64,000 nt of DNA, taken from assembly GCF_055900595.2 (NCBI RefSeq), contig NZ_CM148325.1. One strand, given 5' to 3'. Below the pieces are notes generated by a model. That model had not been told where the DNA came from and did not search any database. It was given only the letters and a program-made list of their open reading frames with translations. Each line of letters opens with the position of its first letter. Positions within the stretch are counted from its first letter, which is position 1. Shown here piece by piece: positions 19,780 through 62,005 of the stretch. Both the position numbers and the translations under genes were made by a program.

Positions 19780-20321
19780 ATCCACTCTGTGCGAACCTGT
19801 CCTGCATTTATGCCAGAAGTATTAGAATCTTTGATTAACGTTACTCGTACTGGTAGCACCTTCATGTGCCTCTCTTTTTTACGAACAATCAAAAGAACTA
19901 ACAAAGGGCATAATTCGTATAAATCATTAACCATTTGTTATATTCAACATTTTTTTACATTAAGCAGAGATGAATTGCAGTGAAATTCAAGTTAAATTTT
20001 ACAAAATGTATTACTCATGGCTAAAAAATCTCCCCAAAATGCAAATTAGAAGTTGATCACAATTATCTCAATACATCAAATAAAGTTAATTTTAAAAATT
20101 TAACATTCATGACATTAGTTGACATAACACGCTGAATTAAAATGAGAATTTAAAAACACACTTTAAACAATCATTTCCCGAAAGACATTTTGAAAATAGA
20201 TCAATTGCAACATTACGGTCAGATAAAGACACTCCTCTGATATTAAACCTGTGCCGTTATGAACGGCCATAAATACGACGTGTGTAACTTAATTTACTCT
20301 CTGTCTTACAAAGGATTACCC

Positions 20322-20771
20322 ATGAAGAAAGCAACACTTGTGATTGGCGTTATTGGCGCGGACTGCCATGCAGTAGGCAATAAAGTTCTGGACCGCGTTT
20401 TTAGCAACCATGACTTCAGAGTCATTAATCTGGGCGTAATGGTCAGCCAGGACGAATATATTGATGCTGCCATTGAAACTGGCGCTGACGCGATTGTCGT
20501 CTCCTCTATCTATGGGCATGGCGATATCGATTGTCTGGGCATGCGCGAACGCTGCATCGAGCGTGGGCTGGGTAACATCCTGCTCTATGTGGGCGGTAAC
20601 CTGGTGGTCGGAAAACATGACTTCGCTGACGTGGAAACCAAGTTCAAAGAGATGGGATTTGATCGCGTCTTTTCCCCAAGTCATGACTTAGAAGATGTTT
20701 GTCAGCTGATGGCCCACGATATCAACCAACGTCATGACGTTGATACTCGCATTCTTGAAGAGGCAATCTGA
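20322..20771 (+). CDS. glmS: glutamate mutase sigma (S) subunit, B12-binding
   Basis: [24 protein letters not shown]... aligns with the clostridial GlmS/MutS B12-binding subunit (DxHxxG-type motif in [10 protein letters not shown]); ORF track begins 21 codons earlier. Confidence 0.85.
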
Positions 20772-22159
20772 TGCAAATCGTCTCTGTCGATATTGGATCG
20801 ACGTGGACCAAAGCAGCCCTCTTCACCCGGGAGGGGGACGCGTTAACGTTGGTTAACCACGTTCTGACCCCAACCACCACCCATCATCTGGCGAAGGGGT
20901 TTTTCTCCAGCCTGGACCAGGTGTTAAACGTAGATGATGCCCTCCCCCTGTTAAACAGTGGTGAGGTTGCATTGAAGTATTCCTCCTCTGCCAAAGGTGG
21001 GCTGGCGGTTGCCGCAATGGGATTAGTGCCTTCTATCACTCTGGAAACCGCGAAAGTAACCGCTCACTCTGCGGGTGCTAAAATTGCGCAATATTACGCC
21101 TACAAGCTGAACCGCCGTGATATCCAGGCACTGGAAGAAACGCAGCCCGATATTCTCTTGTTCACCGGCGGCACCGACGGCGGAGAAGAAAGCTACGGAC
21201 TGAATAACGCCCGTGTGCTGGCAGAATCCAAACTCGACTGCGCCATTATTTATGCCGGAAACCGGGATATTCAGGACAAGGTGCAGGAGATCCTCGGGCA
21301 TAAAGACCTGACCATCGTCGACAACGTTCTGCCCGATCTTGACCATCCGAACCCTTTAGCTGCACGCCAGGCTATCTGCGACATATTCCTTAAACGCATC
21401 GTTAAAGGGAAAGGGCTGGATGTCATTGTTGATAAAACAGGCGAAGAACCAATGCCGACACCATGGACGGTCTTTGAACTGGTTAAGGCAATCAGTAACG
21501 TCGATCACAGCTGGAAAGAGTTCATGCTGATCGACATGGGCGGCGCAACCACCGATGTCTATTCCGCCTGTGCCAACACGCTCTCGCCCGACACTGTTTT
21601 ACATGGCGTACCGGAACCCTTCGTAAAACGGACGGTGGAAGGCGATCTGGGAATGCGCGTCTCGGCAATGGTGGTTGGTGAAAGTGCGAAAGAGTTAGTC
21701 AGTGTGAATTTTGCTCAGCAACCCGCACAGTTGGACGCTTTTTATCATTACCTCCGTCATCTAGTCGCTCATCCCGACTACTTACCCGCGAATGCAGATG
21801 AAAAATATTTCGATACCGTCCTGGCCGGACTGTGTGTGGGTTATGCCACCGAAAGACATGCGGGCACCAAAAAAGAGGTCTGCACCTGCGTCGGCAATGT
21901 CGATTTACAGATGGGACGTGACCTGACAACCGTGCGTAAAGTCGTGGGTTCCGGCGGATGGCTCTCGCGTGCCAGTCAGTTCGATATGCATCGCTGGTTG
22001 AAATACCGCGAGTTAAACGACGACGGTAAACGCATTCTCTTACCGACCGAATTTGAATATTACCGCGATTCCCGGGGGCTATTACCACTGCTGGCAAACG
22101 TCGCCAGAGTCGATCCGCTGGCCGCCGCGCGCACCAGTATTCAATGCTTAACCCTATAA
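20771..22159 (+). CDS. glmL: glutamate mutase-associated protein GlmL/MutL
   Basis: 462 aa ORF between the S and E subunit genes, start overlapping the glmS stop; same position and size as clostridial glmL. Confidence 0.75.
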   Translation: MQIVSVDIGSTWTKAALFTREGDALTLVNHVLTPTTTHHLAKGFFSSLDQVLNVDDALPLLNSGEVALKYSSSAKGGLAVAAMGLVPSITLETAKVTAHSAGAKIAQYYAYKLNRRDIQALEETQPDILLFTGGTDGGEESYGLNNARVLAESKLDCAIIYAGNRDIQDKVQEILGHKDLTIVDNVLPDLDHPNPLAARQAICDIFLKRIVKGKGLDVIVDKTGEEPMPTPWTVFELVKAISNVDHSWKEFMLIDMGGATTDVYSACANTLSPDTVLHGVPEPFVKRTVEGDLGMRVSAMVVGESAKELVSVNFAQQPAQLDAFYHYLRHLVAHPDYLPANADEKYFDTVLAGLCVGYATERHAGTKKEVCTCVGNVDLQMGRDLTTVRKVVGSGGWLSRASQFDMHRWLKYRELNDDGKRILLPTEFEYYRDSRGLLPLLANVARVDPLAAARTSIQCLTL

Positions 22160-30398: not shown

Positions 30399-31304
30399 TT
30401 ACATCTCCTGCGGTACGACCGATTTCGCCAGCAACCATTCACGAAATTGCTGCAAGTGCGGAGAGTCAGACTTCTCTTCCTGCCACGTCATAATAAAACG
30501 ATTACCGGTACGAATAGGCACATCACAGGGAATCACCATATCGCCACTATCCAAATCATGTTGAATAGCGAACCGTGGTAACAGCGCCACGCCGAGATTA
30601 GAGCGCACGGCGGCAATCAGCATTGAAAGCAAATCGAAACGTGGTCCGTTATTGACCAGCGGACTGCTAACGCCAGATAAAGCAAACCACTCTTCCCAGC
30701 CAGTAATACGGGTGCTTTGATGCAGAAGTGGTAACTCAGTAAGCAGTTCTGCCACTGACAGTTTTTGATCGGACATTGCAAGCAAACTGCCGCTGCATAC
30801 CGGCAAAATCTCCTCTTCAAAGAGATATTCTACTTCCGCCCAGGGCGCGCAAAAATTTTCGCGCATAATGACAGCATCGTACTCCCGATTAAGAAAATCG
30901 CCGTTATTAGCTAAAGAATGAATATTAACAATAATATCGGGATGTAACTTTGTGAATTCATGTAAATTTGGGATTAACCAGTGGGTACTAAAAGTAGGAT
31001 TAACGGCAAGTTCAATAACCTGAACCGTAGGCTGCCATGTCATAATCGTATTGGTATCGCGCTCCAGCTTATTTAATGTTTCTTTTACTATCCCCAGGTA
31101 ATACTTCCCTGCATCATTAAGAAAAATGCGTTTTTTAGAGTGTGAAAATAACGGAGTATGTAAAAATTCCTCCAGCGCACTTACTTGTCTGAATACAGCA
31201 CTTTGGGTTAACGCTAACTCCTCTGCCGCTCTGGTATAACTTTCATGTCGTGCGACGACCTCAAAAGTCACCAGCAGCTCCGTTTTAGGTATTTTTCCTC
31301 GCAT
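30399..31304 (-). CDS. LysR-family transcriptional regulator
   Basis: N-terminal HTH (FEVVARHESYTRAAEELALTQSAVFRQVSALEE) and LysR substrate-binding body; start placed at MRGKIPK (ORF track starts 10 codons earlier). Confidence 0.8.
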   Translation of the reverse strand: MRGKIPKTELLVTFEVVARHESYTRAAEELALTQSAVFRQVSALEEFLHTPLFSHSKKRIFLNDAGKYYLGIVKETLNKLERDTNTIMTWQPTVQVIELAVNPTFSTHWLIPNLHEFTKLHPDIIVNIHSLANNGDFLNREYDAVIMRENFCAPWAEVEYLFEEEILPVCSGSLLAMSDQKLSVAELLTELPLLHQSTRITGWEEWFALSGVSSPLVNNGPRFDLLSMLIAAVRSNLGVALLPRFAIQHDLDSGDMVIPCDVPIRTGNRFIMTWQEEKSDSPHLQQFREWLLAKSVVPQEM

Positions 31305-31893
31305 AATGCCGTCCGTGAAAAAATAACAATTCAAAAATTATTTTATAAAAAACAGTAGCACTAATGAATATCATAATTCAAATAAACAAACCAGTCAGCT
31401 ATATGTCTAACCAGGAAAATAAAGTGACAATAATCCTAAAACAGGAATTTCACCTCAGTTATCCGCATGCAATACTTTAAAGCTATTATTGCAAGAATAT
31501 TATTCATATACATGAATATACTCTAAATAAGTCAAGTTGCAGGAAGGGAACAAATAATGAATATCCAGAAGCTTACATAAGTAAGTGACCTGGGTGAGCG
31601 AACATCGATGCAGCACATGCAACTTGAATTATGACAAGTATACAATGATAAATTTATATACCCTATGTTATATATTATCTATGTCCGGTTAAATTGAATG
31701 AGTCATAGCCTTAAAAGACTTCACAAAAGATAATTCCTCTTTAACAATAAGCCAGATTTACCACTTGTAAAACTTGCTATCGCTGCATACACTACGCGCG
31801 TTTTCTTTCCCTTTTGCTGGCTGCTGACCGGAAAGACAAAATTACCCTCGCAATACAGGGGGTTGATTAACGTCTATATTTCAGGACAGCGTT

Positions 31894-33291
31894 ATGCATC
31901 ATCTTTCAAGGCTTGATAAAGCCTTTCTGCGCAAAGGGATCCAACTTTCCCGCGCCAACAATATTGTTTCATTATGTCGTCCATCAGGAGCCAGTGCCCG
32001 CGTACTGCTGCCGGACGAACTGCCGCTGGAAGAAAAAGCAGTGACACAACTGCTTGATTTTGCAGATGTGAAGCTACCAGACCACCCAGGTTATGTGCGC
32101 CAGACGTGCGCGACGCCAGATTTTCATCCCGGCAATGGCGTCCCCGTTGGCGCGGTGGTGGCCTCAACGCCGGATTTAGTCATTCCCGCCGCCATCGGCA
32201 CCGATATTTCTTGTGGCATGCGGCTGCTGACGACCGGATTAACACTTGAGCAAGCCGAAGCGCATAAAGACGTCATCGCTCAGCGGTTAACGCAAGTGCT
32301 ACTGCAAAATGAGCGCGATGTTCCGTTATCCGCACAGGCGTTCACCGCGCTTTTTGATGGCGGACCGGCAGATTGCATGTCGGCCTTGCCATCAGCAGGT
32401 CTCTGGACACGTACAAATATCCCCCGGATGACGCAAGAGATTGACCGCTGCATTGGGCTTAAAGAGCATAACAGTCATTCGCGTTATGCCCCACCCGCCC
32501 TGCTGGCAACGGACCGCGCATTACTCCGCGATCCTTGTCTTGGTACGCCGGGTTCAGGTAATCATTTTATTGAACTTCAGGTCGTTGATAACGTGGTTGA
32601 TCGCCATGTGGCCTGGCAACAAGGGCTGAAAACAGGCGATATTGTGGTGATGATCCACAGTGGATCACGAGATGTTGGCTTTTACGTCGGAAGACGCTGG
32701 ATGGATCGCGCCCGTGCTGAATGGCCCACCGGACATAAACATCCACAAAGCGGGTTATATGGTCTGGCAGGCGGACTGGCGGAGGAATATCTACAAGCGA
32801 TAGGAATGGCGGCGCGTTACGCGTGGTTAAATCGCGTGACAATTGCCGAAATGGTGCGCGTATGTCTTGCCAATCTCTTTCATCAGGACAATTCGCATCT
32901 GGTGGTGGATGTGCCACATAACATCATCCTTCGCGAGCATGAAATGAATATTCATCGCAAAGGCGCAACACCGGCACGAGTGGGCAATCTGGCGTTAATC
33001 CCCGGTTCAATGGGCGATTATTCGTGGCTTGCGGTTGGTTGCGGCAACCCGGAGTGGCTGTGGTCATGCAGTCACGGAGCAGGACGCAGCCAGCGTCGGC
33101 AGGCCATGCGCTCACGCGCGACTGAAGAGTCAACGCTGCCGTGGCAATGCGTCACATTGCGCGAAGAACGACGTCTTGAAGAAGCGCCAGCGGCTTATAA
33201 AGATATTGGTCCGGTTATCGAAGCTCAACAAGAAGCCGGATTAATTCAGCCAGCGGTCAGATTTCGACCGTGGTTAACGTTTAAAGCATAA
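31894..33291 (+). CDS. RtcB-family RNA ligase paralog
   Basis: 465 aa ORF with RtcB hallmarks (GTDISCGMRLL, GSGNHFIELQ, HSGSRDVG, CSHGAGRS); N-terminus longer than remembered E. coli RtcB, so the start is uncertain. Confidence 0.75.
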   Translation: MHHLSRLDKAFLRKGIQLSRANNIVSLCRPSGASARVLLPDELPLEEKAVTQLLDFADVKLPDHPGYVRQTCATPDFHPGNGVPVGAVVASTPDLVIPAAIGTDISCGMRLLTTGLTLEQAEAHKDVIAQRLTQVLLQNERDVPLSAQAFTALFDGGPADCMSALPSAGLWTRTNIPRMTQEIDRCIGLKEHNSHSRYAPPALLATDRALLRDPCLGTPGSGNHFIELQVVDNVVDRHVAWQQGLKTGDIVVMIHSGSRDVGFYVGRRWMDRARAEWPTGHKHPQSGLYGLAGGLAEEYLQAIGMAARYAWLNRVTIAEMVRVCLANLFHQDNSHLVVDVPHNIILREHEMNIHRKGATPARVGNLALIPGSMGDYSWLAVGCGNPEWLWSCSHGAGRSQRRQAMRSRATEESTLPWQCVTLREERRLEEAPAAYKDIGPVIEAQQEAGLIQPAVRFRPWLTFKA

Positions 33292-44018: not shown

Positions 44019-45302
44019 ATGGCTGATACAAAAGCAAAACTCACCCTCAACGGGGATACAGCTGTTGAACTGGATGTGCTGAAAGGCACGCTGGGTCAAG
44101 ACGTTATTGATATCCGTACTCTCGGTTCAAAAGGTGTGTTCACCTTTGACCCAGGCTTCACTTCAACCGCATCCTGCGAATCTAAAATTACTTTTATTGA
44201 TGGTGATGAAGGTATTTTGCTGCACCGCGGTTTCCCGATCGATCAGCTGGCGACCGATTCTAACTACCTGGAAGTTTGTTACATCCTGCTGAATGGTGAA
44301 AAACCAACTCAGGAACAGTATGACGAATTTAAAACGACGGTGACCCGTCATACCATGATCCACGAGCAGATTACCCGTCTGTTCCATGCTTTCCGTCGCG
44401 ACTCGCATCCAATGGCAGTCATGTGTGGTATTACCGGCGCGCTGGCGGCGTTCTATCACGACTCGCTGGATGTTAACAATCCTCGTCATCGTGAAATTGC
44501 CGCGTTCCGCCTGCTGTCAAAAATGCCGACCATGGCCGCGATGTGTTACAAGTATTCCATTGGTCAGCCATTCGTTTACCCGCGCAACGATCTCTCCTAT
44601 GCCGGTAACTTCCTGAATATGATGTTCTCCACGCCGTGCGAACCGTATGAAGTTAATCCGATTCTGGAACGTGCTATGGACCGTATTCTGATCCTGCACG
44701 CTGACCATGAACAGAACGCCTCTACCTCCACCGTGCGTACCGCTGGCTCTTCGGGGGCGAACCCGTTTGCCTGTATCGCAGCAGGTATTGCTTCACTGTG
44801 GGGACCTGCGCACGGTGGTGCTAACGAAGCAGCGCTGAAAATGCTGGAAGAAATCAGCTCCGTTAAACACATTCCGGAATTTGTTCGTCGTGCGAAAGAC
44901 AAGAATGACTCTTTCCGCCTGATGGGCTTCGGTCACCGCGTGTACAAAAACTACGACCCGCGCGCCACCGTCATGCGTGAAACCTGCCACGAAGTCCTGA
45001 AAGAGCTGGGCACGAAGGATGACCTGCTGGAAGTAGCTATGGAGCTGGAAAATATCGCGCTGAACGACCCGTACTTTATTGAGAAAAAACTGTACCCTAA
45101 CGTCGATTTCTACTCTGGTATCATCCTGAAAGCGATGGGTATTCCGTCTTCCATGTTCACCGTCATATTCGCTATGGCACGTACAGTTGGCTGGATCGCC
45201 CACTGGAGCGAAATGCACAGTGATGGCATGAAGATTGCCCGTCCACGTCAGCTGTATACCGGCTATGAAAAACGCGATTTTAAAAGCGACATCAAACGTT
45301 AA
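44019..45302 (+). CDS. gltA: citrate synthase
   Basis: 427 aa ORF matching remembered GltA ([33 protein letters not shown]...); divergent from sdhC across a ~700 bp regulatory region. Confidence 0.95.
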
Positions 45303-45331
45303 CTGCTGATTCCTAAGCTGTAAATTCTGTT

Positions 45332-45362
45332 AACCCGCCTTTAAAAGGCGGGTTAATTTTTA
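45332..45362 (+). terminator. intrinsic terminator after gltA
   Basis: aacccgcc-tttaaaa-ggcgggtt hairpin followed by aattttta. Confidence 0.55.
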
Positions 45363-45694
45363 TCTACCTGAACACAAAAAAATGTAAAAATAAAATTAAT
45401 TAACCGGCTGACATTAATATTGCAAAATAATAGAATTGTTCATTTTATCGGCAAAATAATAAATTTTAATTAAGGTATCTGCTTTTAGTTACATTTATAA
45501 CCTCATGAAAATGAGGTATATCTCTCTCATTCCCCCCGATAACATTCATTAAATTATTAATTCATCACATCAATTAGTTAACCTTGCATTTAATATAATT
45601 AATAATATTTTTAAGTAAAACTAAAAACATTCGACAATCAAATAAGATATTCTGATATCGCTATACTTTTTCTATTTCTGTAAAGGACTCAGTT

Positions 45695-46261
45695 ATGTTT
45701 AAAGGACAAAAAACATTGGCCGCATTGGCCGTATCTCTGTTATTCACTGCACCGGTTTATGCAGCTGATGAAGGTTCTGGTGAAATTCACTTTAAAGGTG
45801 AGGTTATAGAAGCACCATGTGAAATACATCATGATGATATTGATAAAGAAATTGAGCTAGGTCAGGTGACCACCAGCCACATTAATCAGTCTCATCACAG
45901 CGATGCGGTTGCTGTCGACCTGCGTTTAATCAACTGCGACCTGGAAAACTCTAATAACGGTTCCGGTGGCAAGATTTCCAAAGTTGCGGTCACCTTCGAT
46001 AGCTCAGCGAAAACCACTGGCGCAGATCCGATACTCAACAATACCAGCACTGGCGAAGCCACCGGTGTCGGCGTGCGTTTAATGAATAAGGATCAAAGCA
46101 ATATCATTTTAGGCACTGCTTCTCCGGATATCGACCTCGCACCAACGTCCAGTGAACAAACACTGAACTTCTTTGCCTGGATGGAACAAATTGATCAAGC
46201 GACACCAGTAACGGCAGGGGCTGTTACAGCGAATGCAACCTACGTACTGGATTATAAATAA
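45695..46261 (+). CDS. ybgD: fimbrial major subunit (chaperone-usher type)
   Basis: 188 aa ORF with signal peptide and fimbrial subunit architecture; AT-rich upstream region. Confidence 0.85.
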   Translation: MFKGQKTLAALAVSLLFTAPVYAADEGSGEIHFKGEVIEAPCEIHHDDIDKEIELGQVTTSHINQSHHSDAVAVDLRLINCDLENSNNGSGGKISKVAVTFDSSAKTTGADPILNNTSTGEATGVGVRLMNKDQSNIILGTASPDIDLAPTSSEQTLNFFAWMEQIDQATPVTAGAVTANATYVLDYK

Positions 46262-49516: not shown

Positions 49517-50574
49517 GTGCTGGCAAGGGATTGTTGCTCATCATCTATTTGTTATTTCTACCGTTAAAATCTGCGCTTGCCCTGAACTGTTACTTTGGTT
49601 CATCCGGTGGTTCGGTAGAAAAATCGGAATCTATTCAACCATTTGCTGTACCAGGGAATGCCAAACCCGGCGATAAGATCTGGGAGTCTGACGATATTAA
49701 AATTCCCGTCTATTGTGACAACAATACCAACGGCAACTTTGAGAGCGAGCATGTCTACGCCTGGGTAAACCCGTACCCGGGAATTCAGGATCGCTATTAT
49801 CAACTCGGCGTAACTTACAATGGTGTTGATTATGATGCTAACCAGGGAAAAAGCCGCATCGACACTAACCAGTGCATCGACAGCAAAAACATTAATATTT
49901 ATACCCCTGAGCAGATCATCGCGATGGGATGGCAGAACAAAATTTGCTCTGGTGATCCCAATAATATTCATATGTCGCGTACGTTTCTCGCTCGCATGCG
50001 GTTATACGTCAAGATACGAGAGATACCGCCGCATGATTATCAAAGCACGCTCAGCGATTACATTGTGGTGCAATTTGATGGCGAAGGAAGCGTTAATGAG
50101 GACCCTACCGCCCAAAACCTGAAATATCATATTACCGGTCTGGAAAACATTCGGGTATTGGATTGCAGCGTCAATTTTTCTATTACCCCAGCCAACCAGG
50201 TCATTGATTTTGGTAAATTTAATGTACTGGATATCCGGCGACACAACATGACAAAAACATTCGGTATTAAAACGACAAAATCACAAAACGATCAATGTAC
50301 CGACGGATTCAAAGTCAGCTCTTCGTTTTATACCGAAGAAACATTGATTGAAGAGGATAAAGCACTGCTGATTGGCAATGGTCTGAAGCTACGTTTACTG
50401 GATGAAAACGCCTCGCCCTATACCTTCAACAAATACAGCGAATATGCCGACTTCACCAGTGACATGCTGATCTACGAAAAAACCTATACGGCTGAACTTT
50501 CGTCTATTCCCGGCACTCCCATTGAGGCTGGCTCCTTCGATACCGTGGTGCTTTTTAAGATTAACTATAACTAA
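49513..50574 (+). CDS. ybgO: fimbrial adhesin-like protein
   Basis: Start placed at [23 protein letters not shown] to give about 353 aa; last gene of the ybgDQPO operon. Confidence 0.8.
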
Positions 50575-50582
50575 TTTCCCAT

Positions 50583-50615
50583 GATGCCCTTTGCAACCGA
50601 AAGGGCATCTCTTTC
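50583..50615 (+). terminator. putative terminator after ybgO
   Basis: gatgcccttt-gcaaccg-aaagggcatc perfect inverted repeat followed by tctttc. Confidence 0.45.
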
Positions 50616-50724
50616 AGAAAATTGCTGATTTTCCCCTTTTCCTTGATTGCTGTTATTTTTTCCTGGCCCGGCTTTCTTTATGCTGTATCGATACACCAAA
50701 GAGAAAATAATGAGGAAGCGAAGG

Positions 50725-51771
50725 ATGCCAGTTTTGCAGTGGGGAATGTTATGTGTGCTCTCACTTCTCCTTTCTATTGGCTTCCTCGGATTACATCTCC
50801 CGGCGGCGCTATTACTTGGGCCGATGCTCGCCGGGATCATCTTCAGTATGCGCGGGGTTACCCTGCAACTCCCCCGCTCCGCTTTTCTCGCCGCGCAGGC
50901 CATTCTTGGCTGCATGATTGCGCAAAACCTGACCGGTTCGATCCTGACCACGCTAGCGGTGAACTGGCCGATTGTGTTAGCTATTTTACTGGTGACGTTA
51001 CTTTCCAGCGCCATCGTGGGTTGGTTATTGGTGCGCTATAGCTCACTGCCTGGAAATACCGGTGCCTGGGGTTCTTCGCCAGGCGGCGCGGCTGCGATGG
51101 TTGCTATGGCACAGGATTACGGCGCAGATATTCGTCTGGTGGCGTTTATGCAATACCTACGAGTGCTGTTCGTCGCGGGGGCGGCGGTACTGGTTACGCG
51201 GATGATGTTGGGTGATAACGCTGAAGCGGTTAACCAGCAGATCGTCTGGTTCCCGCCAGTGAGCATTAATCTCCTGCTTACGATTTTGCTCGCGGTCGTT
51301 GCCGGTACGGCGGGATGCTTGCTACGTCTTCCTTCCGGCACGATGCTCATCCCGATGCTGGCGGGCGCAGTGCTCCAGTCTGGTCAGCTCATCACCATCG
51401 AACTACCAGAATGGCTGCTGGCGATGGCGTATATGGCAATTGGCTGGCGGATTGGTCTTGGTTTCGATAAGCAAATCTTACTGCGGGCATTGCGCCCGCT
51501 GCCACAAATCTTGCTGTCGATTTTTACTCTGCTGGCTATTTGTGCAGGTATGGCGTGGGGACTGACCCGGTTTATGCATATTGATTTTATGACTGCCTAC
51601 CTCGCCACCAGTCCCGGCGGGCTTGATACCGTGGCGGTCATCGCCGCAGGGAGCAATGCCGATATGGCGCTTATTATGGCGATGCAAACCCTACGCCTGT
51701 TCAGTATTTTGCTGACGGGGCCAGCCATTGCGCGGTTTATTTCAACCTATGCGCCGAAGCGGTCGGCCTAG
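50725..51771 (+). CDS. abrB: AbrB-family membrane protein (putative transporter, AidB regulator locus)
   Basis: Polytopic membrane ORF; start placed at [16 protein letters not shown]; position between ybgO and nei as in K-12. Confidence 0.8.
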
Positions 51772-52559
51772 TGCTGGCAGCCTGGACACCAGTAAAACGG
51801 GCGCGAGGACAACGTGGTTTTCTCAATGATGCTGCCACAACGTTCGCACGGTTCGCCATCACGATGAAAAACCTTAAAGCGAAACAGCGCCCCATGATGT
51901 TTATTCTCATCCACCTGCCCCCGCGTAGCGTAAGAAAGTCGAGGAATCTCCAGTAACGCGTGTGCGAGTGCATCCAGTTGCGCCGCATTGAGATCTTTCG
52001 CTTTATGATTGCCGGTTAACCCCACCTGCCAGAGGATCTCCACCCGCAAATAATTGCCAAGCCCAGCCAGAAACGCCTGATCGAGTAGTAATCCAGCAAA
52101 CTGACGGTTACGAAAGCGCGGCGACAATAACCGTTCTTTCGCCACCTCCGGCGTCAGATTCGGGTCGAGTACATCGGGGCCAACGCGTTGTAAAAACGGA
52201 TGCGTGGTCAGTTGTTTCGGGGTCAACATCTCAATATCCGAGGCGCTATAAAGCAGAATGGTTTTGTCAGCCGTTTGCAGTTTTACCCGCAATACTCGCG
52301 TGGTCTGCGGCTCTTCGCCGGTATCAACCACGCGCCAGACGCCGTAAAGCTGATTATGGCTGTAGAGCGTTAACCCGTTGGAAAAATGAGTTAACAACGC
52401 CTTACCTCGCGTTTCCACATGGGTAACGTGTTGACCGATAAGTTGTGATTGATAAGGTTTTAACTGCGGGAAGGCAAACCAGACATCAGTTAGAGGTTTA
52501 CCTTTGATCGCCGCCTCCAGGTTATCCGCTGCACGGCGGATCTCCGGGCCTTCAGGCAT
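51768..52559 (-). CDS. nei: endonuclease VIII
   Basis: 263 aa ORF with N-terminal MPEGPEIRR (Fpg/Nei catalytic Pro) and C-terminal zinc finger (CERCG...CPGCQ). Confidence 0.9.
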
Positions 52560-52594
52560 GGTGATATCCTTTTTTCATTCTTTATTAAGCGGGG

Positions 52595-53329
52595 CTATGC
52601 TGCGACAACAATCCCCTTTTCGGCAAATGTAGAGCGTAGTCGGCGGGCGAACGCCAGTGCGTGTTCTCCATCGCCATGCAGGCAGACCGTTTGCGCCGTG
52701 ACCGTTGCCCATTCGCCGTTGATACTTTTGACTCTGCCGTGTTGCACCATCTCCAGCGTCTGCGCCAGCGCCTGTTCTTCGTCTTCAATCAGCGCGCCTG
52801 GCTGGCTTCGCGGCACCAGCGAGCCGTCAGCCTTGTAACCGCGATCGGCAAACACTTCCTCGCGCGTTGTCAGGCCATATTGCTTGCCTGCACGAATCAG
52901 CTCGCTTCCCGCCAGCCCGACGAGAATCAATGCCGGATCGCAAGCGTATACCGCTCTGGCGATGGCGTCTGCCAGTTGTGCCTCTTTCGCCGCCTGGTTA
53001 TACAACATGCCGTGCGGTTTGACATGACGCATTACGCCGCCTTGAGCACGGGCAATCGTTGCCAGCGCGCCAATTTGATACAGCGTCTGGGCGTAAACGG
53101 TTTCTGGCGGCAGCTGCATGGCGCTGCGACCAAAATTTTCCCTGTCGGGAAAACTCGGGTGAGCGCCAATCGCAACACCATTTTTTATTGCTTCACGCAC
53201 GCAAGCCTGCATGGTTTGCGCATCGCCAGCATGAAATCCACAGGCAATATTGGCAGAGGAAACCAGCGTTAATAGCTCTGCGTCGCTGACACAGCCTTCG
53301 CCCAGATCGGCGTTCAGGTCAATTTTCAT
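52595..53329 (-). CDS. pxpA: 5-oxoprolinase subunit A (LamB/YcsF family)
   Basis: 244 aa ORF matching remembered YbgL. Confidence 0.85.
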
Positions 53330-54251
53330 TGTGCAGCCGCCACGCTAATTGTTCGAAATAACGTTGCTGATCTTGCCGTGCTTTCAGTGCCTCTTCCAGT
53401 GAACACTGGACAAAATGAATCGGCTGACCGAGCGGAATTTGCGCCAGATGGTACATATCAGCCTCAATGATACAGGCAATACGCGGATAACCACCGGTGG
53501 TCTGTGCGTCGTTCATCAATACAATCGGCTGGCCGTTATGCGGCACCTGCACCACGCCCGGCAACAAACCATGAGATAACAGTTCGCGATCGGTGGTGCG
53601 TTTTAAAATTTGCCCCTGTAAGCGATAACCCATACGGTTACTTTGCGGGCTAAGTTGCCACGGCGAACGCCAGAATGCATCCTGCGAGGCACGATCGAAC
53701 TCATGATATTCTGGCCCTGGCAAGGCGCGAATGCGGTTGCCCCACAGCAGCTGTTTAACGCCCTGCGCTTCCATAAAATCACGCTTCGCTTTGCCCATCG
53801 GGAGACGGTCACCATCCTTCAGTAAACGGCCTTCTAACCCGCCAATCCCCACTTTAAGATCGGTACTGCATGACCCCATAACCGACGGAACATCAAATCC
53901 GCCCGCAACCGCCAGATAACTGCGCATCCCATGCTGCGGGCGTTTAAGGGTTAAACGCTGGCCTGCTTTCATCGGCAAGCGCCAGCCGGTCCAGACAGCA
54001 TTATCATCCAGCCGCGCTTCGCAACCTGCACCGGTCAGGGCAAACCAACCATCAGTTTCGAACTCTACCGTTAACTGACCGAGCGTTATCTCCAGCGCGG
54101 GGGCATTGGCGTCATTACCCACCAGCAGGTTAGCAATGCGTAACGCAGGCATATCCAGTGCGCCGCAGTGGCTGATACCCGACTGGCGAAAACCGTGACG
54201 ACCGCCATCCTGCACAGTGGTATACATGCCCGCACGAATAATCTTCAGCAT
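53319..54251 (-). CDS. pxpC: 5-oxoprolinase subunit C
   Basis: 310 aa ORF matching remembered YbgK; overlaps pxpA start. Confidence 0.85.
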
Positions 54252-54901
54252 ACTCCCTCCTTCTGCGGTACAAAGCGCACGCTGTCTCCCGGACGTAATA
54301 AGATGGGTTCGTCACGCGCCGGATCAAACAGGCTGAGTGAGGTATGACCAATCAACTGCCAGCCGCCCGGCGTTGCCAGCGGATAAACACCGGTCTGCGG
54401 CCCGCCGATCCCGACAGAACCTGCCGGAACGAGCAAGCGCGGCTCAGCGCGCCGTGGCGTGTGTAGTTGTTCCGGCAAACTCCCGAGATACGGGAAGCCC
54501 GGTTGAAAACCTAAAAACCAGACCACGTATTCCACAGAGGAGTGCAATTCAACAACCTGTTTTTCGCTCAATCCACAATGCGCCGCGACCACCGCCAAAT
54601 CCGGTCCGCCTGCACCACCGTAAACCACCGGAATTTCAATAAAACGAGACTCCGGCTCCAGCGCCTCACTCTCCTCCCACCAGCGTTGCAAACGCTCTAT
54701 GGCATCCAGCGCCAGCGACTCAGGATTACGTAAAATCACCGTGATATTGTTCATGCCGGGAATGGCTTCAACCACATTCGGCATATCCACCAGACGCTGC
54801 GCCAGTCGCCAGATCCGTTTCTGGCTAGCCAGCGTCACCGGCGGTTCCAGCTCCAGCACTACCGCCGTTTCACCTATCAGATAACAACGCGCTCGTTGCA
54901 C
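54245..54901 (-). CDS. pxpB: 5-oxoprolinase subunit B
   Basis: 218 aa ORF matching remembered YbgJ. Confidence 0.85.
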
Positions 54902-54923
54902 TTTCGATCCCTCTGATTATTCG

Positions 54924-55667
54924 TTATGCAGGATTAGGAATATCAATAAAGGTCACATCAAGATCGGTATTTTCATTCAGCCACTCACTCAATGCGCGAA
55001 TACCACCGCGTTCGGTGGCATGGTGACCCGCAGCATAAAAATGCAATCCCTGCTCGCGGGCTGAATGAATGGTCTGTTCAGAAACTTCGCCAGTAATAAA
55101 AGCATCCACGCCAAAACGCGCGGCGCTATCGATAAAACTTTGCCCGCCGCCCGTGCACCAGGCAACGCGCTGAATCACCTCAGGTCCGGTATCGCCACAC
55201 CATAACGGCTTACGTCCCAGACGCGCTTCAATCCAGGAAGCCAATTCCAGTCCCGGCACAGGCATAGTCAGTTCGCCCCACGGCACTAACGGCTCAATTT
55301 CACCCAAGACCGTAATCCCAAGTAACGCCGCCAGCTGTGCGTTATTGCCCAGCTCCGGATGCGCGTCCAACGGCAGATGCCAGCCATACAGGTTGATATC
55401 ATTCGCCAACAATGTTTTTAAGCGGTTACGCTTCATACCGCGAATTACTGGCGATTCCCCTTTCCAGAAATAACCATGATGCACAATGACCGCATCCGCG
55501 CCCAGACGCACCGCTTCATCGAGCAAAGCCTGGCTGGCGGTGACACCGGTAACAATTTTTTGCACCGTCTCTTTGCCTTCCACCTGCAAACCATTCGGCG
55601 CGTAATCACTAATCGCCGCGCTGTTCAGTTTTTCGTTAATCAGTTGTTCCAGTTCGGTGTTTTTCAT
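54924..55667 (-). CDS. ybgI: Nif3-family metal-binding protein (GTP cyclohydrolase 1 type 2 homolog)
   Basis: 247 aa ORF at the head of the ybgIJKL-nei unit. Confidence 0.85.
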   Translation of the reverse strand: MKNTELEQLINEKLNSAAISDYAPNGLQVEGKETVQKIVTGVTASQALLDEAVRLGADAVIVHHGYFWKGESPVIRGMKRNRLKTLLANDINLYGWHLPLDAHPELGNNAQLAALLGITVLGEIEPLVPWGELTMPVPGLELASWIEARLGRKPLWCGDTGPEVIQRVAWCTGGGQSFIDSAARFGVDAFITGEVSEQTIHSAREQGLHFYAAGHHATERGGIRALSEWLNENTDLDVTFIDIPNPA

Positions 55668-55754
55668 CTTCGCGCCTTCCGTATTCTGATAGCTACACCG
55701 TTAACATAGCGTTACCTCGCCTGTTCGTCGATAGCCAATCTTTTGACATATTAA

Positions 55755-57419
<1,665 letters not shown>

Positions 57420-57434
57420 CAGGCCAGCACCGAT

Positions 57435-57548
57435 GCCTGATAAGACGCTTAATGCGTCTTATCAGGCCTGGATGTCCCTGCAATATATTGAATTTGCACT
57501 ATTTGCCAGGCCGGAGAAGGCGTTCACGCAGTATCCGGCATCCGGGCA
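57435..57548. repeat. REP elements downstream of dtpD
   Basis: gcctgataagacgcttaatgcgtcttatcaggc and gccggagaaggcg...ccggcatccgggc palindromes. Confidence 0.5.
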
Positions 57549-57567
57549 AGATTGCCTGACGCGTCTG

Positions 57568-58986
57568 TTATTTCCCCTTCCTCGCCGCCTCATACGCTGC
57601 CAACGTTCGTACTCTCGCTTCTTTGTGATCGACTATCGGTTGCGGATAATCCAGCGTCACACCTGATTTATCTGCCCACTTCCACGGTTCATGCACCGCT
57701 TTCCCTGGTACATCGCGCAACTCTGGTAGCCACCGGCGGATAAACTCACCTTCGTGGTCAAATTTCTCGCCCTGAGTTGTCGGATTGAAAATACGGAAAT
57801 ACGGTGCAGCATCGGTTCCAGTAGAAGCCGCCCATTGCCAGCCACCGTTATTGGCTGCCAAATCACCATCAATCAGTTGCGACATGAAATATCGCTCGCC
57901 TTCCCGCCAGTCGATCAGCAAATCTTTCACCAGAAAACTGGCAGTAATCATCCGCAGGCGATTATGCATCCAGCCAGTGCTGTTAAGCTGACGCATGGCC
58001 GCATCAACAATCGGGTATCCCGTTTTGCCTTCCTGCCAGGCCTTTAAATGCGCGGGATTACTTTGCCACTGTACGCGATCGGTCCAGGCAATAAAGGGGC
58101 GATGCTTACACAGTGACGGGTGATACGTCATCAAATGACGGTAGAACTCGCGCCAGATCAGCTCATTAAGCCAGACGCTACCAGCCCCGCCATCCAGCGC
58201 TTGCGGCTGTTCCGCCAACAGGCGATGCAGACACTGGCGAGGCGATAACCTACCCGTTGCAAGGCTTGCAGACAAACGGCTGGTGCCTTCCACTGCCGGA
58301 AAATCACGCTGCTGATCGTACTGACTCGCACCGTTCTGGCAAAACTGGCGTAATTGCGCAATCGCCGCTTTTTCTTCCACCGGGAAATGCGCGGTATCGA
58401 AAGACTGACGAGGGTAATTCAGCGTAATAGATGGCGCGGGATCTAATGATCCGCTACTCCGAACTTTTGGCGCAGCGACGCACTCCGGCATCCCTTCCCG
58501 CAGCCGTTTCAGCCAGGCATTCTTAAAAGGCGTAAAGACTTTGTACATCTCATGATTGCCAGTCATCACCGCCCCCGGCGGCAGGATCACGCTGTCATCG
58601 AACCCTTCACACACCACGTTACTCAGCGCTCTTTCAACTTCCACATCCCGCGCCCGCTCATTCACCTCATACTGATAGTTATAAAACAGATGGGTAACAC
58701 GATTTTCCGCGCACACCTGTTTAACTATTTCGACGCTGGCGGCAAAGTCATCCACTTCATGAAACAGCAAAGGAATACCTTTTTCCGCCAGCGCGTTTTG
58801 CAGCGCATTAAGTTGTGTATTGATAAGTTCAGCCTGACGCGGCGACACATTATGCGCCGCCCACTGGCGTGGTGTAGCGATATACAACGCCAGCACGCGT
58901 GCAGACGAATTGCGGCAGGCGGCAGCAAGCGCGAGATTGTCGTGCAGACGTAAATCCTGGCGAAACCAGACCAGATGGGTAGTCAT
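57568..58986 (-). CDS. phr: deoxyribodipyrimidine photolyase
   Basis: 472 aa ORF matching remembered Phr/PhrB (MTTHLVWFRQDLRLHDNLAL...). Confidence 0.9.
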   Translation of the reverse strand: MTTHLVWFRQDLRLHDNLALAAACRNSSARVLALYIATPRQWAAHNVSPRQAELINTQLNALQNALAEKGIPLLFHEVDDFAASVEIVKQVCAENRVTHLFYNYQYEVNERARDVEVERALSNVVCEGFDDSVILPPGAVMTGNHEMYKVFTPFKNAWLKRLREGMPECVAAPKVRSSGSLDPAPSITLNYPRQSFDTAHFPVEEKAAIAQLRQFCQNGASQYDQQRDFPAVEGTSRLSASLATGRLSPRQCLHRLLAEQPQALDGGAGSVWLNELIWREFYRHLMTYHPSLCKHRPFIAWTDRVQWQSNPAHLKAWQEGKTGYPIVDAAMRQLNSTGWMHNRLRMITASFLVKDLLIDWREGERYFMSQLIDGDLAANNGGWQWAASTGTDAAPYFRIFNPTTQGEKFDHEGEFIRRWLPELRDVPGKAVHEPWKWADKSGVTLDYPQPIVDHKEARVRTLAAYEAARKGK

Positions 58987-59492
58987 AAAACTCCTGCATG
59001 GCGCAAGTTAATCACCCGCGGCCAAAGTTCGAAATAACGCTGCCCTGAAAGCCAGGCGTCAGGATAAAGCGCCATATAGTGTTTGATACGCATCAGCGGC
59101 GCAAGAAGCGGTTGCTCGCCACGGCGATAACTGTCGATAAGCGACGCCAGCTGCTGGCGTTCTGTGGAATCAATATGTGGGCGAAAATATCCCTGAACGT
59201 GCATCAAAACGTTAGTATGATCACGCCGGTTGGCAGGGTGAGAAAGCAAAACAATTACGCGTTGACGGTACTGGTTGTAATAGTCATCCAGATTTTGCCA
59301 CTGGTGAATATCAGCCACAAACGGGCCAAGTTTGCGGTATTCCGGCTGGGAATGAGCCAGAAAGACGAGTTTATAGCGGCTGTGATAATCGTTGAGCGCC
59401 CCGCGCGTTAGCCCATGTTCTTTCAGTCGATGTAACTCATGAAGGGCGAAGATACGGATTAGGGTGCTTTCATCAAATCGTTGCTGATTCAT
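58983..59492 (-). CDS. ybgA: DUF1722-family protein YbgA
   Basis: 169 aa ORF overlapping the phr start (ybgA-phr operon). Confidence 0.85.
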   Translation of the reverse strand: MNQQRFDESTLIRIFALHELHRLKEHGLTRGALNDYHSRYKLVFLAHSQPEYRKLGPFVADIHQWQNLDDYYNQYRQRVIVLLSHPANRRDHTNVLMHVQGYFRPHIDSTERQQLASLIDSYRRGEQPLLAPLMRIKHYMALYPDAWLSGQRYFELWPRVINLRHAGVL

Positions 59493-59576
59493 TACTGCTC
59501 CTGAACGGTTTACAGGAGTAAGTGTAGACGGCAGTATTGAAAAAACGAAACGAATAAATGAATTCGGTAAAGAAAT

Positions 59577-59984
59577 TCAATTATTCATAATAAAGTTCAT
59601 AGTAGCGATAAATAGTTTCTTTTCTTCATCACTCATGGCAGCAACGTTTAACATGTTGTCATCAAAATTATTGATGTTATTTTTTAATTTCAGTAACTGC
59701 AAAGGAGAAAAATAGTCACTCCCGATGAGATTACTCAATACCAGCAATAGCTCCCCATCATATAAATAGCCCACCATAAGATTAATCTCTATCATCTCAA
59801 TTGCTTTTTGTACAGCAAGCGCCGGTAAGATATTCTGACGAAGCATTTTGGCAATATCATTTTCATCCAGTTCATCGGGTGTTTTATCTAATAAAGAATT
59901 ATACCAGTTTATTAAACCACTTTTGAAAGCGAACGAATCATATTGCAGGTGATAAATCTGTTTTAGGGTTTCTTTATTTTTCAA
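59577..59984 (-). CDS. hypothetical small protein (135 aa from a TTG start), AT-rich
   Basis: ORF with a TTG start (first ATG would give about 89 aa); markedly AT-rich; acidic, Asn/Leu-rich; no known motif. Confidence 0.35.
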   Translation of the reverse strand: MKNKETLKQIYHLQYDSFAFKSGLINWYNSLLDKTPDELDENDIAKMLRQNILPALAVQKAIEMIEINLMVGYLYDGELLLVLSNLIGSDYFSPLQLLKLKNNINNFDDNMLNVAAMSDEEKKLFIATMNFIMNN

Positions 59985-60026
59985 TTTATAGTGCCTTTAT
60001 TTGCTATAATTTTTTCTGAAATAACA

Positions 60027-60494
60027 TCAGCGAGTTTGCTCAGGTGCAGGGATGACCGAAATTGTCATGTATTTTTTCAGTCTGGCTTCTCGTTTCACAC
60101 CTTTCGGATCTGAACCAAAAGGAAGCGTCAAGCATGGTGAGTCAACGGTTTGGATTGTCCAGAGAGAATCACCAATGAATCTGAAATTGATGCTATCCGC
60201 TGTAACGGATAATCCCTCAAAACTTCCCGTCGCATACTCATTACCCAAACGTACGGTCTCTTTAACTCCATCGTTAACATCGATAAGGACAATTGTCAGT
60301 GATTCCTCAAAAATAACGTCATCCGTCAGAAAAAGGATATAACGCTGGTCATTAACCTGAATTGCCGCTTCCAGTATTTGCCCTGGTACAATAATACCTG
60401 TGTTATTGCCATTGAGCACAACGTCAGACTGAGCCTGAGATAAATCAGTCGCTTTGTGAACCTTGACCAACGATATCGAATTAACCTGTTGCAT
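60027..60494 (-). CDS. hypothetical protein (about 155 aa), AT-rich, immunity-protein-like context
   Basis: ATG at 60494 lies 2 nt after the stop of the upstream glycine-zipper reading frame; the ORF track extends it to a GTG at 60587 in a way that would overlap that frame. Confidence 0.4.
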   Translation of the reverse strand: MQQVNSISLVKVHKATDLSQAQSDVVLNGNNTGIIVPGQILEAAIQVNDQRYILFLTDDVIFEESLTIVLIDVNDGVKETVRLGNEYATGSFEGLSVTADSINFRFIGDSLWTIQTVDSPCLTLPFGSDPKGVKREARLKKYMTISVIPAPEQTR

Positions 60495-60496
60495 AA

Positions 60497-60637
60497 TCAA
60501 TTCCACAAGCGCCCCATTTCCCATGCGGCAAGTGCACCGCCGACAAAGCCGCCAATAAGTACGCAAACAGGTGCTCCTGGACCACACATCAATCCGGTCA
60601 ACGCACCGCCTGCGACAGCACCGGCAATAATATTCAT
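60497..60637 (-). CDS. 46-codon glycine-zipper reading frame (possible toxin C-terminal remnant or small membrane peptide)
   Basis: Manual translation MNIIAGAVAGGALTGLMCGPGAPVCVLIGGFVGGALAAWEMGRLWN*; no good Shine-Dalgarno; in-frame sequence upstream runs 35 codons to a stop with no other ATG. Confidence 0.25.
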   Translation of the reverse strand: MNIIAGAVAGGALTGLMCGPGAPVCVLIGGFVGGALAAWEMGRLWN

Positions 60638-60820
60638 CCGGGTACGACTGCCAGTGGTTTTAACAGATTTACGCTCACCGTTACGTATCCTGCCACCACT
60701 CAGGTTGCAGACGCGGCAGTCACAGCCTTGACGGTGTTGAAACTAAAGTTCAGGTGATAGTCTGATGTTCATAGTTTGAGCATTATCCCCTGACAGAATA
60801 AAATCAAGCAGTGTCAATGA

Positions 60821-61078
60821 TCACGTGTATATATCATTTAAAGCATTATCAAGCCAATCTTCCATGTTTTTAATTTTAGCCCGCGCATATAAATCATTCA
60901 TAACATCCTCATAACTCTGCCCATCATTGACCATACAATTAGCTGTATGAGGCAGAACATGTATAAAATCAGACAATATAAAACAAGCCTTTGAATTTCC
61001 AGAGTTAGCTGCAATTCTGATATCAATCAATCCTCTGGCAATCAATTTAAGAATAACATCTTGCATTTTAATTTCCAT
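60821..61078 (-). CDS. hypothetical small protein (85 aa), AT-rich
   Basis: ATG-initiated ORF in the AT-rich array; no recognisable motif. Confidence 0.35.
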   Translation of the reverse strand: MEIKMQDVILKLIARGLIDIRIAANSGNSKACFILSDFIHVLPHTANCMVNDGQSYEDVMNDLYARAKIKNMEDWLDNALNDIYT

Positions 61079-61160
61079 ATCATCCAGTTAAATTTCAGTA
61101 GTAAATCGTCTATCAAAAAAAGATGAAATTAACATTCATAAATTTATTACAATATGAAAA

Positions 61161-61514
61161 TCAAAAATATACATCATCAGCTTCTTCCGAAAACTCCATG
61201 GCTCCTAAGGCACCTAAATCAATACTAAATATAGTATCACTTTCCTTAGCACTCCCAACATAGATAAAATAGCCTAAATCTCCGTCTTGACCTATCAAAA
61301 AATAGTCAGGTTCCACTTGTTGAATATCATATGTTTCATTTCTTTCAATAAGATCAGAATAGTTATATAAATATAATGTTTCGTGCTTCTTATTAGTTAT
61401 TTCATAGGTCTCACTATCTTTAATTTCTTCTATCAAAAAATGTTTATACACTGGAGGAAACTTGATTGACATGTCAAATTCAATTTTATTTATATATTCT
61501 ATAATTTTATTCAT
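61161..61514 (-). CDS. hypothetical small acidic protein (117 aa), AT-rich
   Basis: ATG-initiated ORF; acidic, Tyr/Glu/Asp-rich, reminiscent of immunity-type proteins; no recognisable motif. Confidence 0.4.
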   Translation of the reverse strand: MNKIIEYINKIEFDMSIKFPPVYKHFLIEEIKDSETYEITNKKHETLYLYNYSDLIERNETYDIQQVEPDYFLIGQDGDLGYFIYVGSAKESDTIFSIDLGALGAMEFSEEADDVYF

Positions 61515-61798
61515 GTTAAGAATACATGAAAGATTATTTATTGATTATCTTGATGAATATATCTTCACTTTTTATTTTCATTTACTCATCGCGGAAATAC
61601 ACATTGCCTTGTAGACAAGCGCTAATAATACGTTATGAACCTGACTTCCGCCAGACAATCAATCTATGAATTCATTACGCCGTAGTGTTTTAGAAAGACA
61701 CTTTCTGACCAGATGGTGAACCATATACTACATCGCGCATTATAAAAAAACCGCCAGCGTTTCCACTAGCGGTTTTCAATGTTTTCAAAACTCAGCAA

Positions 61799-62005
61799 TC
61801 AGTAAAAATCACCGGTTGCCTTTTCGGCCTGATCCATCCACACCGGTTTATCGCTGGTTTTCGACCAGACGCGATGCAGATAGCTGTAAAAGCGGGCGCG
61901 GTCTTTCCAGAAAAGCATGAAAGGCAGCGCCAGAACGCCCGCTGCAACCGCATAAGTACGGCGTAAAAAGATAAGCCATGCAGGATATTCTCTGTAGAGT
62001 TCCAT
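61799..62005 (-). CDS. ybfA: DUF2517-family small protein YbfA
   Basis: 68 aa ORF with a strong AAGGGGGAG ribosome-binding site; position beside kdpF as in K-12. Confidence 0.75.

Follow-up and report, generated by a model that had tools for sequence, protein, structure and literature searches.

What stands between ybgA and ybfA where the RhsC element of Escherichia coli K-12 is missing? The question is raised by a stretch of 64,000 nucleotides (contig NZ_CM148325.1 of the NCBI RefSeq assembly GCF_055900595.2), hereafter called the window and numbered from its first letter, in which ybgA (58983-59492) and ybfA (61799-62005) bracket an island of small open reading frames (ORFs). The variable island (59531-61741, no strand assigned) comprises 2,211 bp with a guanine plus cytosine (GC) content of 36%, and lies where K-12 has its RhsC element, from ybgA to the ybfA terminator. 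It is likely to be a heterogeneous orphan-immunity (polyimmunity) island of four small acidic genes on the same strand, each of which would belong to, or be the conserved partner of, a different family of interbacterial toxins. In the mechanism proposed here none of the partner toxins is encoded at the locus, and each immunity protein would bind and neutralise the matching toxin when it is injected by a neighbour.

The gene order in K-12 is ybfA-rhsC-ybfB-orphan Rhs fragment-ybfC-ISAs1 remnants-ybgA, and an earlier reading made from the letters and translations of the window (the sequence-only reading) had given this content, rhsC with orphan cassettes, correctly. The K-12 counterpart between the shared junctions is 9.6 kb long (L039, 12051-21614). 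Similarity of the window to K-12 ends at position 61742 and resumes at 59530, and therefore the 2,211-bp island replaces the 9.6-kb Rhs element between the same junctions. The GC content of the island (59531-61741) is 36.2% and that of positions 50000-59530 is 52.6%; most of the ybgA-ybfA interval has 26-36% GC, and the region from about 60300 to 60750 is richer, with 46-52%.

The absence of an Rhs core, also claimed before, was borne out. No match with E ≤ 1e-3 was obtained anywhere in the 64-kb window when two full-length Rhs proteins (from Ewingella and from E. coli A17) were used in tblastn; with the same two proteins the matches within the island were at chance level, and no remnants of an Rhs core or toxin tip were detected upstream of ORF5, ORF4 or ORF1. 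Comparison of the window with K-12 revealed no similarity of the window ORFs to the K-12 element; none of them matches ybfB or ybfC, the ordinary conserved genes that the sequence-only reading had named as the alternative to immunity genes. Having neither an rhs core nor core-homologous fragments with a PxxxxDPxGL boundary, the island does not belong with Rhs elements carrying orphan cassettes.

All five frames of the island lie on the minus strand in the order ORF5, ORF4, a 46-codon frame, ORF2 and ORF1, separated by 82 nt (ORF5-ORF4), 183 nt (ORF4 to the 46-codon frame, a gap made of an insertion sequence (IS) remnant), 2 nt and 42 nt (ORF2-ORF1). The earlier description of an AT-rich, minus-strand array of four small acidic ORFs and a 46-codon glycine-zipper frame agrees with the ORF coordinates, the GC content and the isoelectric points (pI), which range from 4.18 to 4.85 across ORF1, ORF2, ORF4 and ORF5. 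No signal peptide or membrane helix is evident in the four ORFs, as judged by eye, and none of the five frames matched an NCBIfam model. The literature on rhsC, ybfA and ybgA contained nothing about the island. The array is present in approximately 170 of 5,426 complete E. coli genomes, 13 of which have the four-gene form of the window and 157 a three-gene form (represented by L002, E. coli Ecol_316); most of the other genomes have rhsC or something else between ybfA and ybgA. In the three-gene copies that were read the three ORFs are intact, at 91-94% nucleotide identity. The two forms differ by a block of 810 bp in the window (60020-60829), in place of which the three-gene variant has 8 bp.

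According to the sequence-only reading none of the ORFs could be assigned, and a profile search against immunity families was recommended. That search, once run, overturned the first statement, as it gave a CdiI_3 match for ORF1 and a SUKH match for ORF5. ORF1 (59577-59984, minus strand; 135 amino acids (aa) from a TTG start, pI 4.7) is, by profile and structural matches, a CdiI_3 protein, that is, a member of a family of immunity proteins of contact-dependent growth inhibition (CDI). Its residues 10-85 match Pfam CdiI_3 (PF18616) at 2e-17, its residues 22-113 match chain C of PDB entry 5j5v (deposited as 'Immunity protein CdiI') at 5.6e-6, and the identical RefSeq record names the product 'contact-dependent growth inhibition system immunity protein'. 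Structures of the CDI toxin of E. coli NC101 with its immunity protein and EF-Tu have been published (PMC5737660), and CdiA C-terminal nuclease toxins of the NC101/Ntox28 kind are the predicted partners of ORF1.

The close relatives of ORF1 that were read (72-96% identity, from E. coli, E. albertii and metagenomic contigs) all lie in a ybfA-ybgA array with no toxin. The sole relative found to adjoin a toxin is 35% identical and overlaps the end of an orphan Ntox28 ('polymorphic toxin type 28') CdiA C-terminal module on the EC93 plasmid pCP127, where the module is placed downstream of cdiB-cdiA (cdiBAI). In that region of pCP127 (L044, 11381-20401) orphan modules with Ntox28, Ntox25, DUF6862 and DUF769/DUF596 stand among IS3 and IS66 elements, and this string is a textbook orphan toxin/immunity array. 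Another relative of ORF1, 54% identical, is one of a run of seven small genes, all on one strand, that stand behind a MuF protein and a gene with a Colicin_E5 domain. Two metagenome contigs (L034, 5072-8836, and L035) have this order of a Phage_Mu_F gene, a Colicin_E5 gene and then seven small same-strand ORFs, an arrangement suggestive of a polymorphic toxin of the MuF type followed by a polyimmunity array.

ORF5 (61161-61514, minus strand; 117 aa, pI 4.2), at the ybfA side of the array, is an immunity-type protein of the SUKH-1 (SMI1/KNR4) kind. Its place in the SUKH / SMI1-KNR4 superfamily follows from a modest profile match with which a second source agrees: the Pfam families SMI1_KNR4, SUKH_6 and SUKH_5 matched at 2e-4, 0.015 and 0.018, respectively, and PDB entry 3d5p (Smi1/Knr4 family) at 2.1e-5. 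A scan of one genome per species gave 23 relatives of ORF5, the closest 15 of them in genera of the Enterobacterales at 53-57% identity. In Ewingella and three Xenorhabdus species (L012, L017, L019, L023) the relative lies directly 3' of a full-length rhs gene (1,468-1,536 aa), and in several other genomes it follows a shorter Rhs C-terminal fragment. The Rhs pieces preceding ORF5 relatives share a tip ending '...VQSHHPIQD...NPFFDI', which is Pfam Tox-SHH (2.3e-38), an HNH/EndoVII nuclease toxin, and a Tox-SHH nuclease at the C-terminus of an Rhs protein is accordingly the partner predicted for ORF5 from these neighbourhoods. Among complete E. coli genomes, ORF5-type DNA is confined to the ybfA-ybgA locus of 170 genomes, and no Tox-SHH toxin was found beside ORF5-type genes in the genomes carrying this DNA.

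ORF4 (60821-61078, minus strand; 85 aa, pI 4.9) is of the Rhs-immunity type and belongs to no named family: it has no Pfam match even at E ≤ 10, no NCBIfam match and, in PDB, matches at chance level only. A DNA match of 71% identity was found in E. coli A17 (L003), where, within an Hcp-VgrG-Rhs cluster, an 85-aa gene begins 2 nt past the stop codon for a 1,497-aa 'RHS element core protein'; the A17 protein is 57% identical to ORF4 (E 4e-32). Approximately 100 records fall in the same band of DNA identity, and A17 is the one locus among them that was inspected. The context in A17 suggests that ORF4 is an immunity-type protein, with an unnamed Rhs C-terminal toxin of the A17 type as its predicted partner. 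Its C-terminus reads '...DIYT' in the window and '...DIELNQKNHSK' in the three-gene variant, the last two codons and the stop codon being supplied in the window by the IS630 remnant.

The sequence-only reading had likened the array to orphan immunity genes. This holds for the four ORFs, for each of which there is independent evidence of an immunity type, and fails for the 46-codon frame (60497-60637, minus strand; 46 aa, glycine-rich and hydrophobic), which from its homologues is a truncated toxin gene and not an immunity gene. The evidence comes from E. albertii, in which a 147-aa ORF comes first between ybfA and ybgA, followed by an intact 240-aa gene (L037, 6767-7489), ORF2 and a CdiI_3 gene. 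The last 44 residues of the 240-aa protein are those of the window frame except at two positions, and the E. albertii ORF2, which begins 2 nt past the 240-aa gene, is identical to that of the window. Between 60629 and 59300 the window agrees with E. albertii at 97.8% identity, and upstream of 60629 it has no match to it; therefore, only codons 197-240 or so of the toxin gene survive, and the ATG of the 46-codon frame at 60637 lies outside the homology. The part that remains (60497-60629, minus strand), codons ~197-240 and the stop, is the 3' stump of a gene for a free-standing, 240-aa helical glycine-zipper protein, predicted to be a membrane toxin. The toxin N-terminal part had no match in the 5,426 complete E. 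coli genomes. The frame has its relatives among small proteins (74-141 aa) of Enterobacter, Cronobacter, Pantoea and Kosakonia, and giant toxins were not matched. Searched against PDB sequences, the 81-aa frame gave chance-level matches only. A class II microcin or bacteriocin remnant with a double-glycine leader ('NLSGG') was also considered for the frame and rejected, the upstream part being derived from IS630, the homologues being helical proteins of 240 aa and the Bacteriocin_IIc match having an E-value of 7.8.

The stump is fused straight to a decayed remnant of an IS630-family element (60630-60831, minus strand), in which the ATG of the 46-codon frame lies. The remnant, mapped by blastn and tblastn against an annotated IS630-family element of a Pantoea dispersa plasmid (L038), consists of the left end of the element, with transposase codons 1-27 joined to codons 179-204 of 339. 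It has no intact transposase with terminal inverted repeats and is a remnant rather than an element. Positions 60584-60703 are annotated as an incomplete IS630 family transposase in the identical RefSeq record. RefSeq annotation of 60497-60703 is inconsistent among the 13 four-gene genomes, 11 having an IS630 pseudogene that runs into the toxin stump and two a 46-aa hypothetical protein. The island may accordingly be viewed as a mosaic, with a left part (ORF5-ORF4) like that of the three-gene E. coli array and a right part (stump-ORF2-ORF1) like that of E. albertii, in which the decayed IS630-family element would join the halves, having deleted the toxin gene up to about codon 196 and given ORF4 a different end. 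The 147-aa acidic ORF of E. albertii (L037, 6195-6638), at the place of ORF5 and ORF4, has no Pfam or NCBIfam match and is missing from every complete E. coli genome searched; possibly it is a further orphan immunity gene.

ORF2 (60027-60494, minus strand) has 155 aa from an ATG, or 186 aa from an upstream GTG, and a pI of 4.7; its product is predicted to be soluble and all-beta and belongs to an unnamed family. No Pfam (even at E ≤ 10), NCBIfam or PDB sequence match was obtained. The structural model, a confident one (pLDDT 84, pTM 0.82), is an all-beta domain with no hydrophobic helix, and its similarity to solved structures is generic. Relatives in AFDB are spread over the Proteobacteria and nearly all lack a name, and such names as occur (DUF1579, stringent starvation protein B) are uninformative. 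The partner toxin likewise has no Pfam match, and in its rebuilt form it matches PDB sequences at chance level only. It is modelled with nine helices, of which the three C-terminal ones are hydrophobic and the last of these three is kept in the stump; the hydrophobic glycine-zipper helices of the model suggest that the toxin may depolarise membranes. A colicin-type pore-forming domain (PF01024) was tried and rejected, as neither profile nor fold agreed.

A search of 1.84 billion representative sequences gave 551 clusters of the toxin family. Most members either carry the domain at the C-terminus of a protein of 230-420 aa or stand alone with ~240 aa, the latter being the majority. One cluster has an N-terminal PAAR domain of type VI secretion systems (T6SS) (143 bits for NF033420, whose cutoff is 124; 1.7e-17 for Pfam PAAR_motif), and one or two other homologues have an N-terminal PG_binding_1 domain. 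No T6SS core genes were seen in the genomic contexts of the family that were inspected. ORF2 starts 2 nt past the toxin stop codon in the window, E. albertii, Enterobacter and Kosakonia, and on the long contigs with relatives of the frame an ORF2-type gene of 138-159 aa begins at the same distance; distant members, with the PAAR fusion among them, have 10-13 nt at this point. After the PAAR-fused gene, and likewise after another long member, comes a gene for 150-151 aa at a distance of ~10 nt, and both of these genes belong to the ORF2 family (hhalign, 99.9% and 98.9% probability). The pairing of toxin and ORF2 is thus kept in Enterobacter, Kosakonia and metagenomic contigs. In Enterobacter the toxin frame is truncated or frameshifted (78-83 aa) and the ORF2-type gene is intact. 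Three of these Enterobacter loci (L007, ~7381-8707; L008; L009) have an unrelated hydrophobic ORF of 202-207 aa directly upstream of the broken toxin frame, and McrBC genes lie a few kb from the toxin remnant and ORF2 in L007 and L008, the latter locus also being near AAA_15/AAA_21 ATPase genes.

ORF2 is probably the immunity protein for the glycine-zipper toxin, because its position after the toxin gene is kept over wide divergence and because it is retained where the toxin has been destroyed. The pair appears to be uncharacterised. Known T6SS pore-formers of Serratia marcescens, Ssp6 and Ssp4 with their immunity proteins Sip6 and Sip4 (PMC6889166, PMC12669606), share several features with the toxin: they are small to mid-sized helical proteins with predicted membrane helices and no enzymatic domain, their immunity gene lies directly downstream, and the genes are often far from T6SS clusters. 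Ssp4, described as 13 helices with a beta-sheet, is set apart by this description from the nine-helix model of the toxin. The Ssp4 and Ssp6 families were rejected as a home for the toxin and ORF2, since Sip6 and Sip4 are membrane proteins, with two and four membrane helices, respectively, and ORF2 is a soluble all-beta protein; the toxins themselves were not compared in sequence. Tentatively, and with more doubt than confidence, the 240-aa protein and ORF2 may be put forward as an undescribed and widespread effector-immunity family, with 551 clusters across the Proteobacteria, no model in Pfam or NCBIfam and no solved relative, at least sometimes delivered by T6SS (as the PAAR fusions suggest), in which the toxin has been lost repeatedly while E. 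coli and Enterobacter keep ORF2. If so, a soluble, apparently cytoplasmic and beta-rich ORF2 would imply neutralisation from the cytoplasmic side or through the soluble helical domain of the toxin, and its being kept after loss of the toxin would mean protection against neighbours.

Purifying selection acts on the four ORFs. The ratios of nonsynonymous to synonymous substitution rates (dN/dS), all from small substitution counts, span 0.07-0.41, with 0.05 for ybgA as control. Against the three-gene variant they are 0.07 for ORF5, 0.25 for ORF1 and 0.41 for ORF4; ORF4 has 0.26 against the A17 gene, ORF1 0.35 against E. albertii, and ORF2 0.13-0.15 against Enterobacter, where dS is above 1.

The island is a known type of locus (heterogeneous polyimmunity or orphan immunity). 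Heterogeneous polyimmunity loci were described by Zhang, Aravind and colleagues (2012, PMC3482391), who proposed pre-emptive defence against the toxins of non-kin. Shared with those loci are the tandem, closely spaced genes on one strand, the structurally unrelated immunity proteins including SUKH, and the content that varies between strains. Thus, the island combines SUKH, CdiI_3, ORF4 and ORF2, the last two recognised by genomic context, in one orientation with short gaps, and among strains the site holds the four-gene form (13 genomes), the three-gene form (157), rhsC in K-12, or a different left half with the intact toxin in E. albertii. It departs from the published description, by which such loci are never interrupted by toxins (PMC3482391), in the 44-codon stump between ORF4 and ORF2; the three-gene variant has no such interruption. 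An adjacent recombinase, frequent and not obligatory in those loci, is lacking: the flanking genes are ybgA, phrB, dtpD, ybfA and kdpFAB (phrB and dtpD beyond ybgA and kdpFA/kdpFAB beyond ybfA, from the annotation of the identical RefSeq record), and the only trace of a mobile element at the island is the decayed IS630 remnant. The island also differs from them in being small (four genes), in having no XerC/D-type recombinase and in lying at a known Rhs insertion point.

A related kind of locus consists of orphan modules (rhs-CT/rhsI or cdiA-CT/cdiI) that stand downstream of rhs and cdi genes (Poole et al. 2011, PMC3150448; Koskiniemi et al. 2014, PMC3967940), and rhsC-ybfB-orphan-ybfC of K-12 is one of these. 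In common with them the island has the K-12 rhsC site and the kinds of immunity protein seen after Rhs and CdiA tips. The island, however, has no full-length rhs or cdiA gene upstream, its immunity genes have no toxin tips and they are unrelated to ybfB/ybfC. The earlier suggestion of an array left behind a missing toxin gene stands in part: the array lacks its toxins, but the predicted partners are delivered by two systems or more (T6SS Rhs/PAAR and CDI), and the island is therefore more than the leftover end of an rhsC element. A further parallel is provided by the Bacteroidales, whose loci of this sort are termed 'acquired interbacterial defence' clusters. Gut Bacteroidales carry acquired orphan immunity genes against T6SS effectors (for example PMC12247911, PMC10470768), and the concept of immunity genes kept against neighbours without their cognate toxins is shared by the island, which is known here from sequence alone, whereas the phylum and the immunity families are different and the island has no mobile-element recombinase.

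We infer that the genes are expressed, that their products bind toxins and that the cell is protected, and several observations weigh against such a role. Identity to the nearest toxin-linked relatives is just 35-57%, and immunity proteins as a rule have high specificity. The assignment of ORF4 comes from a single inspected context, and its end was changed by the IS insertion; the Pfam match of ORF5 is a modest 2e-4; ORF1 begins with TTG; ORF2, predicted to be soluble and lacking an evident signal peptide, would be an unusual immunity protein for a membrane toxin, Sip4 and Sip6 being membrane proteins; and the substitution counts behind the dN/dS values are small. Promoter-like sites number 10 in the island, about as many as shuffled sequence would give (9.5 expected), and a terminator-like hairpin divides the island from ybfA. 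The altered end of ORF4, the chance number of promoter sites and the lack of a high-identity cognate toxin, together with the toxin stump, the IS630 scar and the presence of the array in just ~3% of complete E. coli genomes, would suit a non-functional relic of past toxin cassettes and IS activity, unexpressed and unprotective in a minority lineage. We consider such a relic unlikely, as the four ORFs are intact in all 13 genomes and the three ORFs in the three-gene copies read, selection has held dN/dS at the values given above, ORF2 of Enterobacter has stayed intact beside degraded toxin genes at a dS above 1, and the same type of array persists in E. albertii.

Two further explanations concern the right half of the island. 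The solubility of ORF2, an all-beta protein of ~150 aa in which neither signal peptide nor membrane helix is evident, the hydrophobic helices of the toxin and the membrane nature of Sip4 and Sip6 would be accounted for if ORF2 were a chaperone or adaptor that keeps the glycine-zipper toxin soluble for loading into the T6SS, in the manner of Eag/DUF1795, and were here a useless remnant. Eag chaperones are beta-rich and similar in size to ORF2. This main alternative to immunity is improbable in our estimate, and the retention of ORF2 where the toxin has been destroyed was read above in favour of immunity. Very improbable, finally, is a self-contained two-gene module in which the 46-codon ORF encodes a functional small membrane peptide, a toxin or a modulator, and ORF2 its antidote. 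The ORF does have an in-frame ATG, a hydrophobic 46-aa product (grand average of hydropathicity 1.13) and an end 2 nt before ORF2; it is annotated as a protein by RefSeq in two of the 13 genomes, and an identical 46-aa product is on record in E. fergusonii. However, its ATG is within IS-derived DNA, beyond the homology to the toxin, no Shine-Dalgarno-like sequence was seen in the 25 nt upstream, just the last of the three C-terminal hydrophobic helices is retained, and the other 11 genomes are annotated with an IS630 pseudogene there. An orphan-immunity island thus remains the preferred reading, with the 46-codon frame as the end of a toxin gene and ORF2 as the probable immunity gene that followed it.

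The ybfA-side edge of the island is marked by a terminator-like hairpin with a T-run (61745-61790, minus strand, 46 nt). This 46-nt stretch is kept in ~3,800 E. coli genomes regardless of what lies past the hairpin, and it was not called by a simple terminator scan. The hairpin of the window has mismatches (CCGCTAGTGGAAACGCTGGCGG), and the stem of the three-gene variant is perfect (CCGCCAGCGGAAACGCTGGCGG); if this weakens the hairpin, more transcription could run on from ybfA into the island in the four-gene form. In the commoner three-gene variant the ybfA terminator and the ORF5-type gene are also set apart by ~240 additional bp (L002, 4549-4787), which are absent from the window at ~61744. 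By eye this stretch resembles an ERIC/IRU repeat (GTGAGCGAACGCAGTCGCAGCACATGCAACTTGAAGTATGACGAGTATA in reverse complement).

Elsewhere in the window a second AT-rich block, with 36-44% GC, lies at ~17000-21000 next to cydA and encodes two hypothetical proteins beside glmS and glmL (methylaspartate mutase). At least 80% of the block is present in 1,134 of the 5,426 E. coli genomes, and it is therefore another variable island. The 1-kb bins 31001-32000 and 45001-46000 have ~38% GC.

For the biology of the site, the island indicates that the place of a weapon at a classical Rhs 'rearrangement hot spot' can be taken in other lineages by a toxin-free array of defensive genes, and that such an array may combine immunity genes against at least two delivery systems, the Rhs/PAAR effectors of T6SS and CDI. 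The general picture of interbacterial conflict is unchanged by this. The locus would also record how an array of this kind arises, an IS630-family element having deleted most of a toxin gene and spared the immunity gene, and recombination having joined differing halves. Finally, it provides testable assignments for three genes annotated as 'hypothetical protein', and points to an unnamed toxin/immunity family that may be common in the Enterobacterales and beyond.

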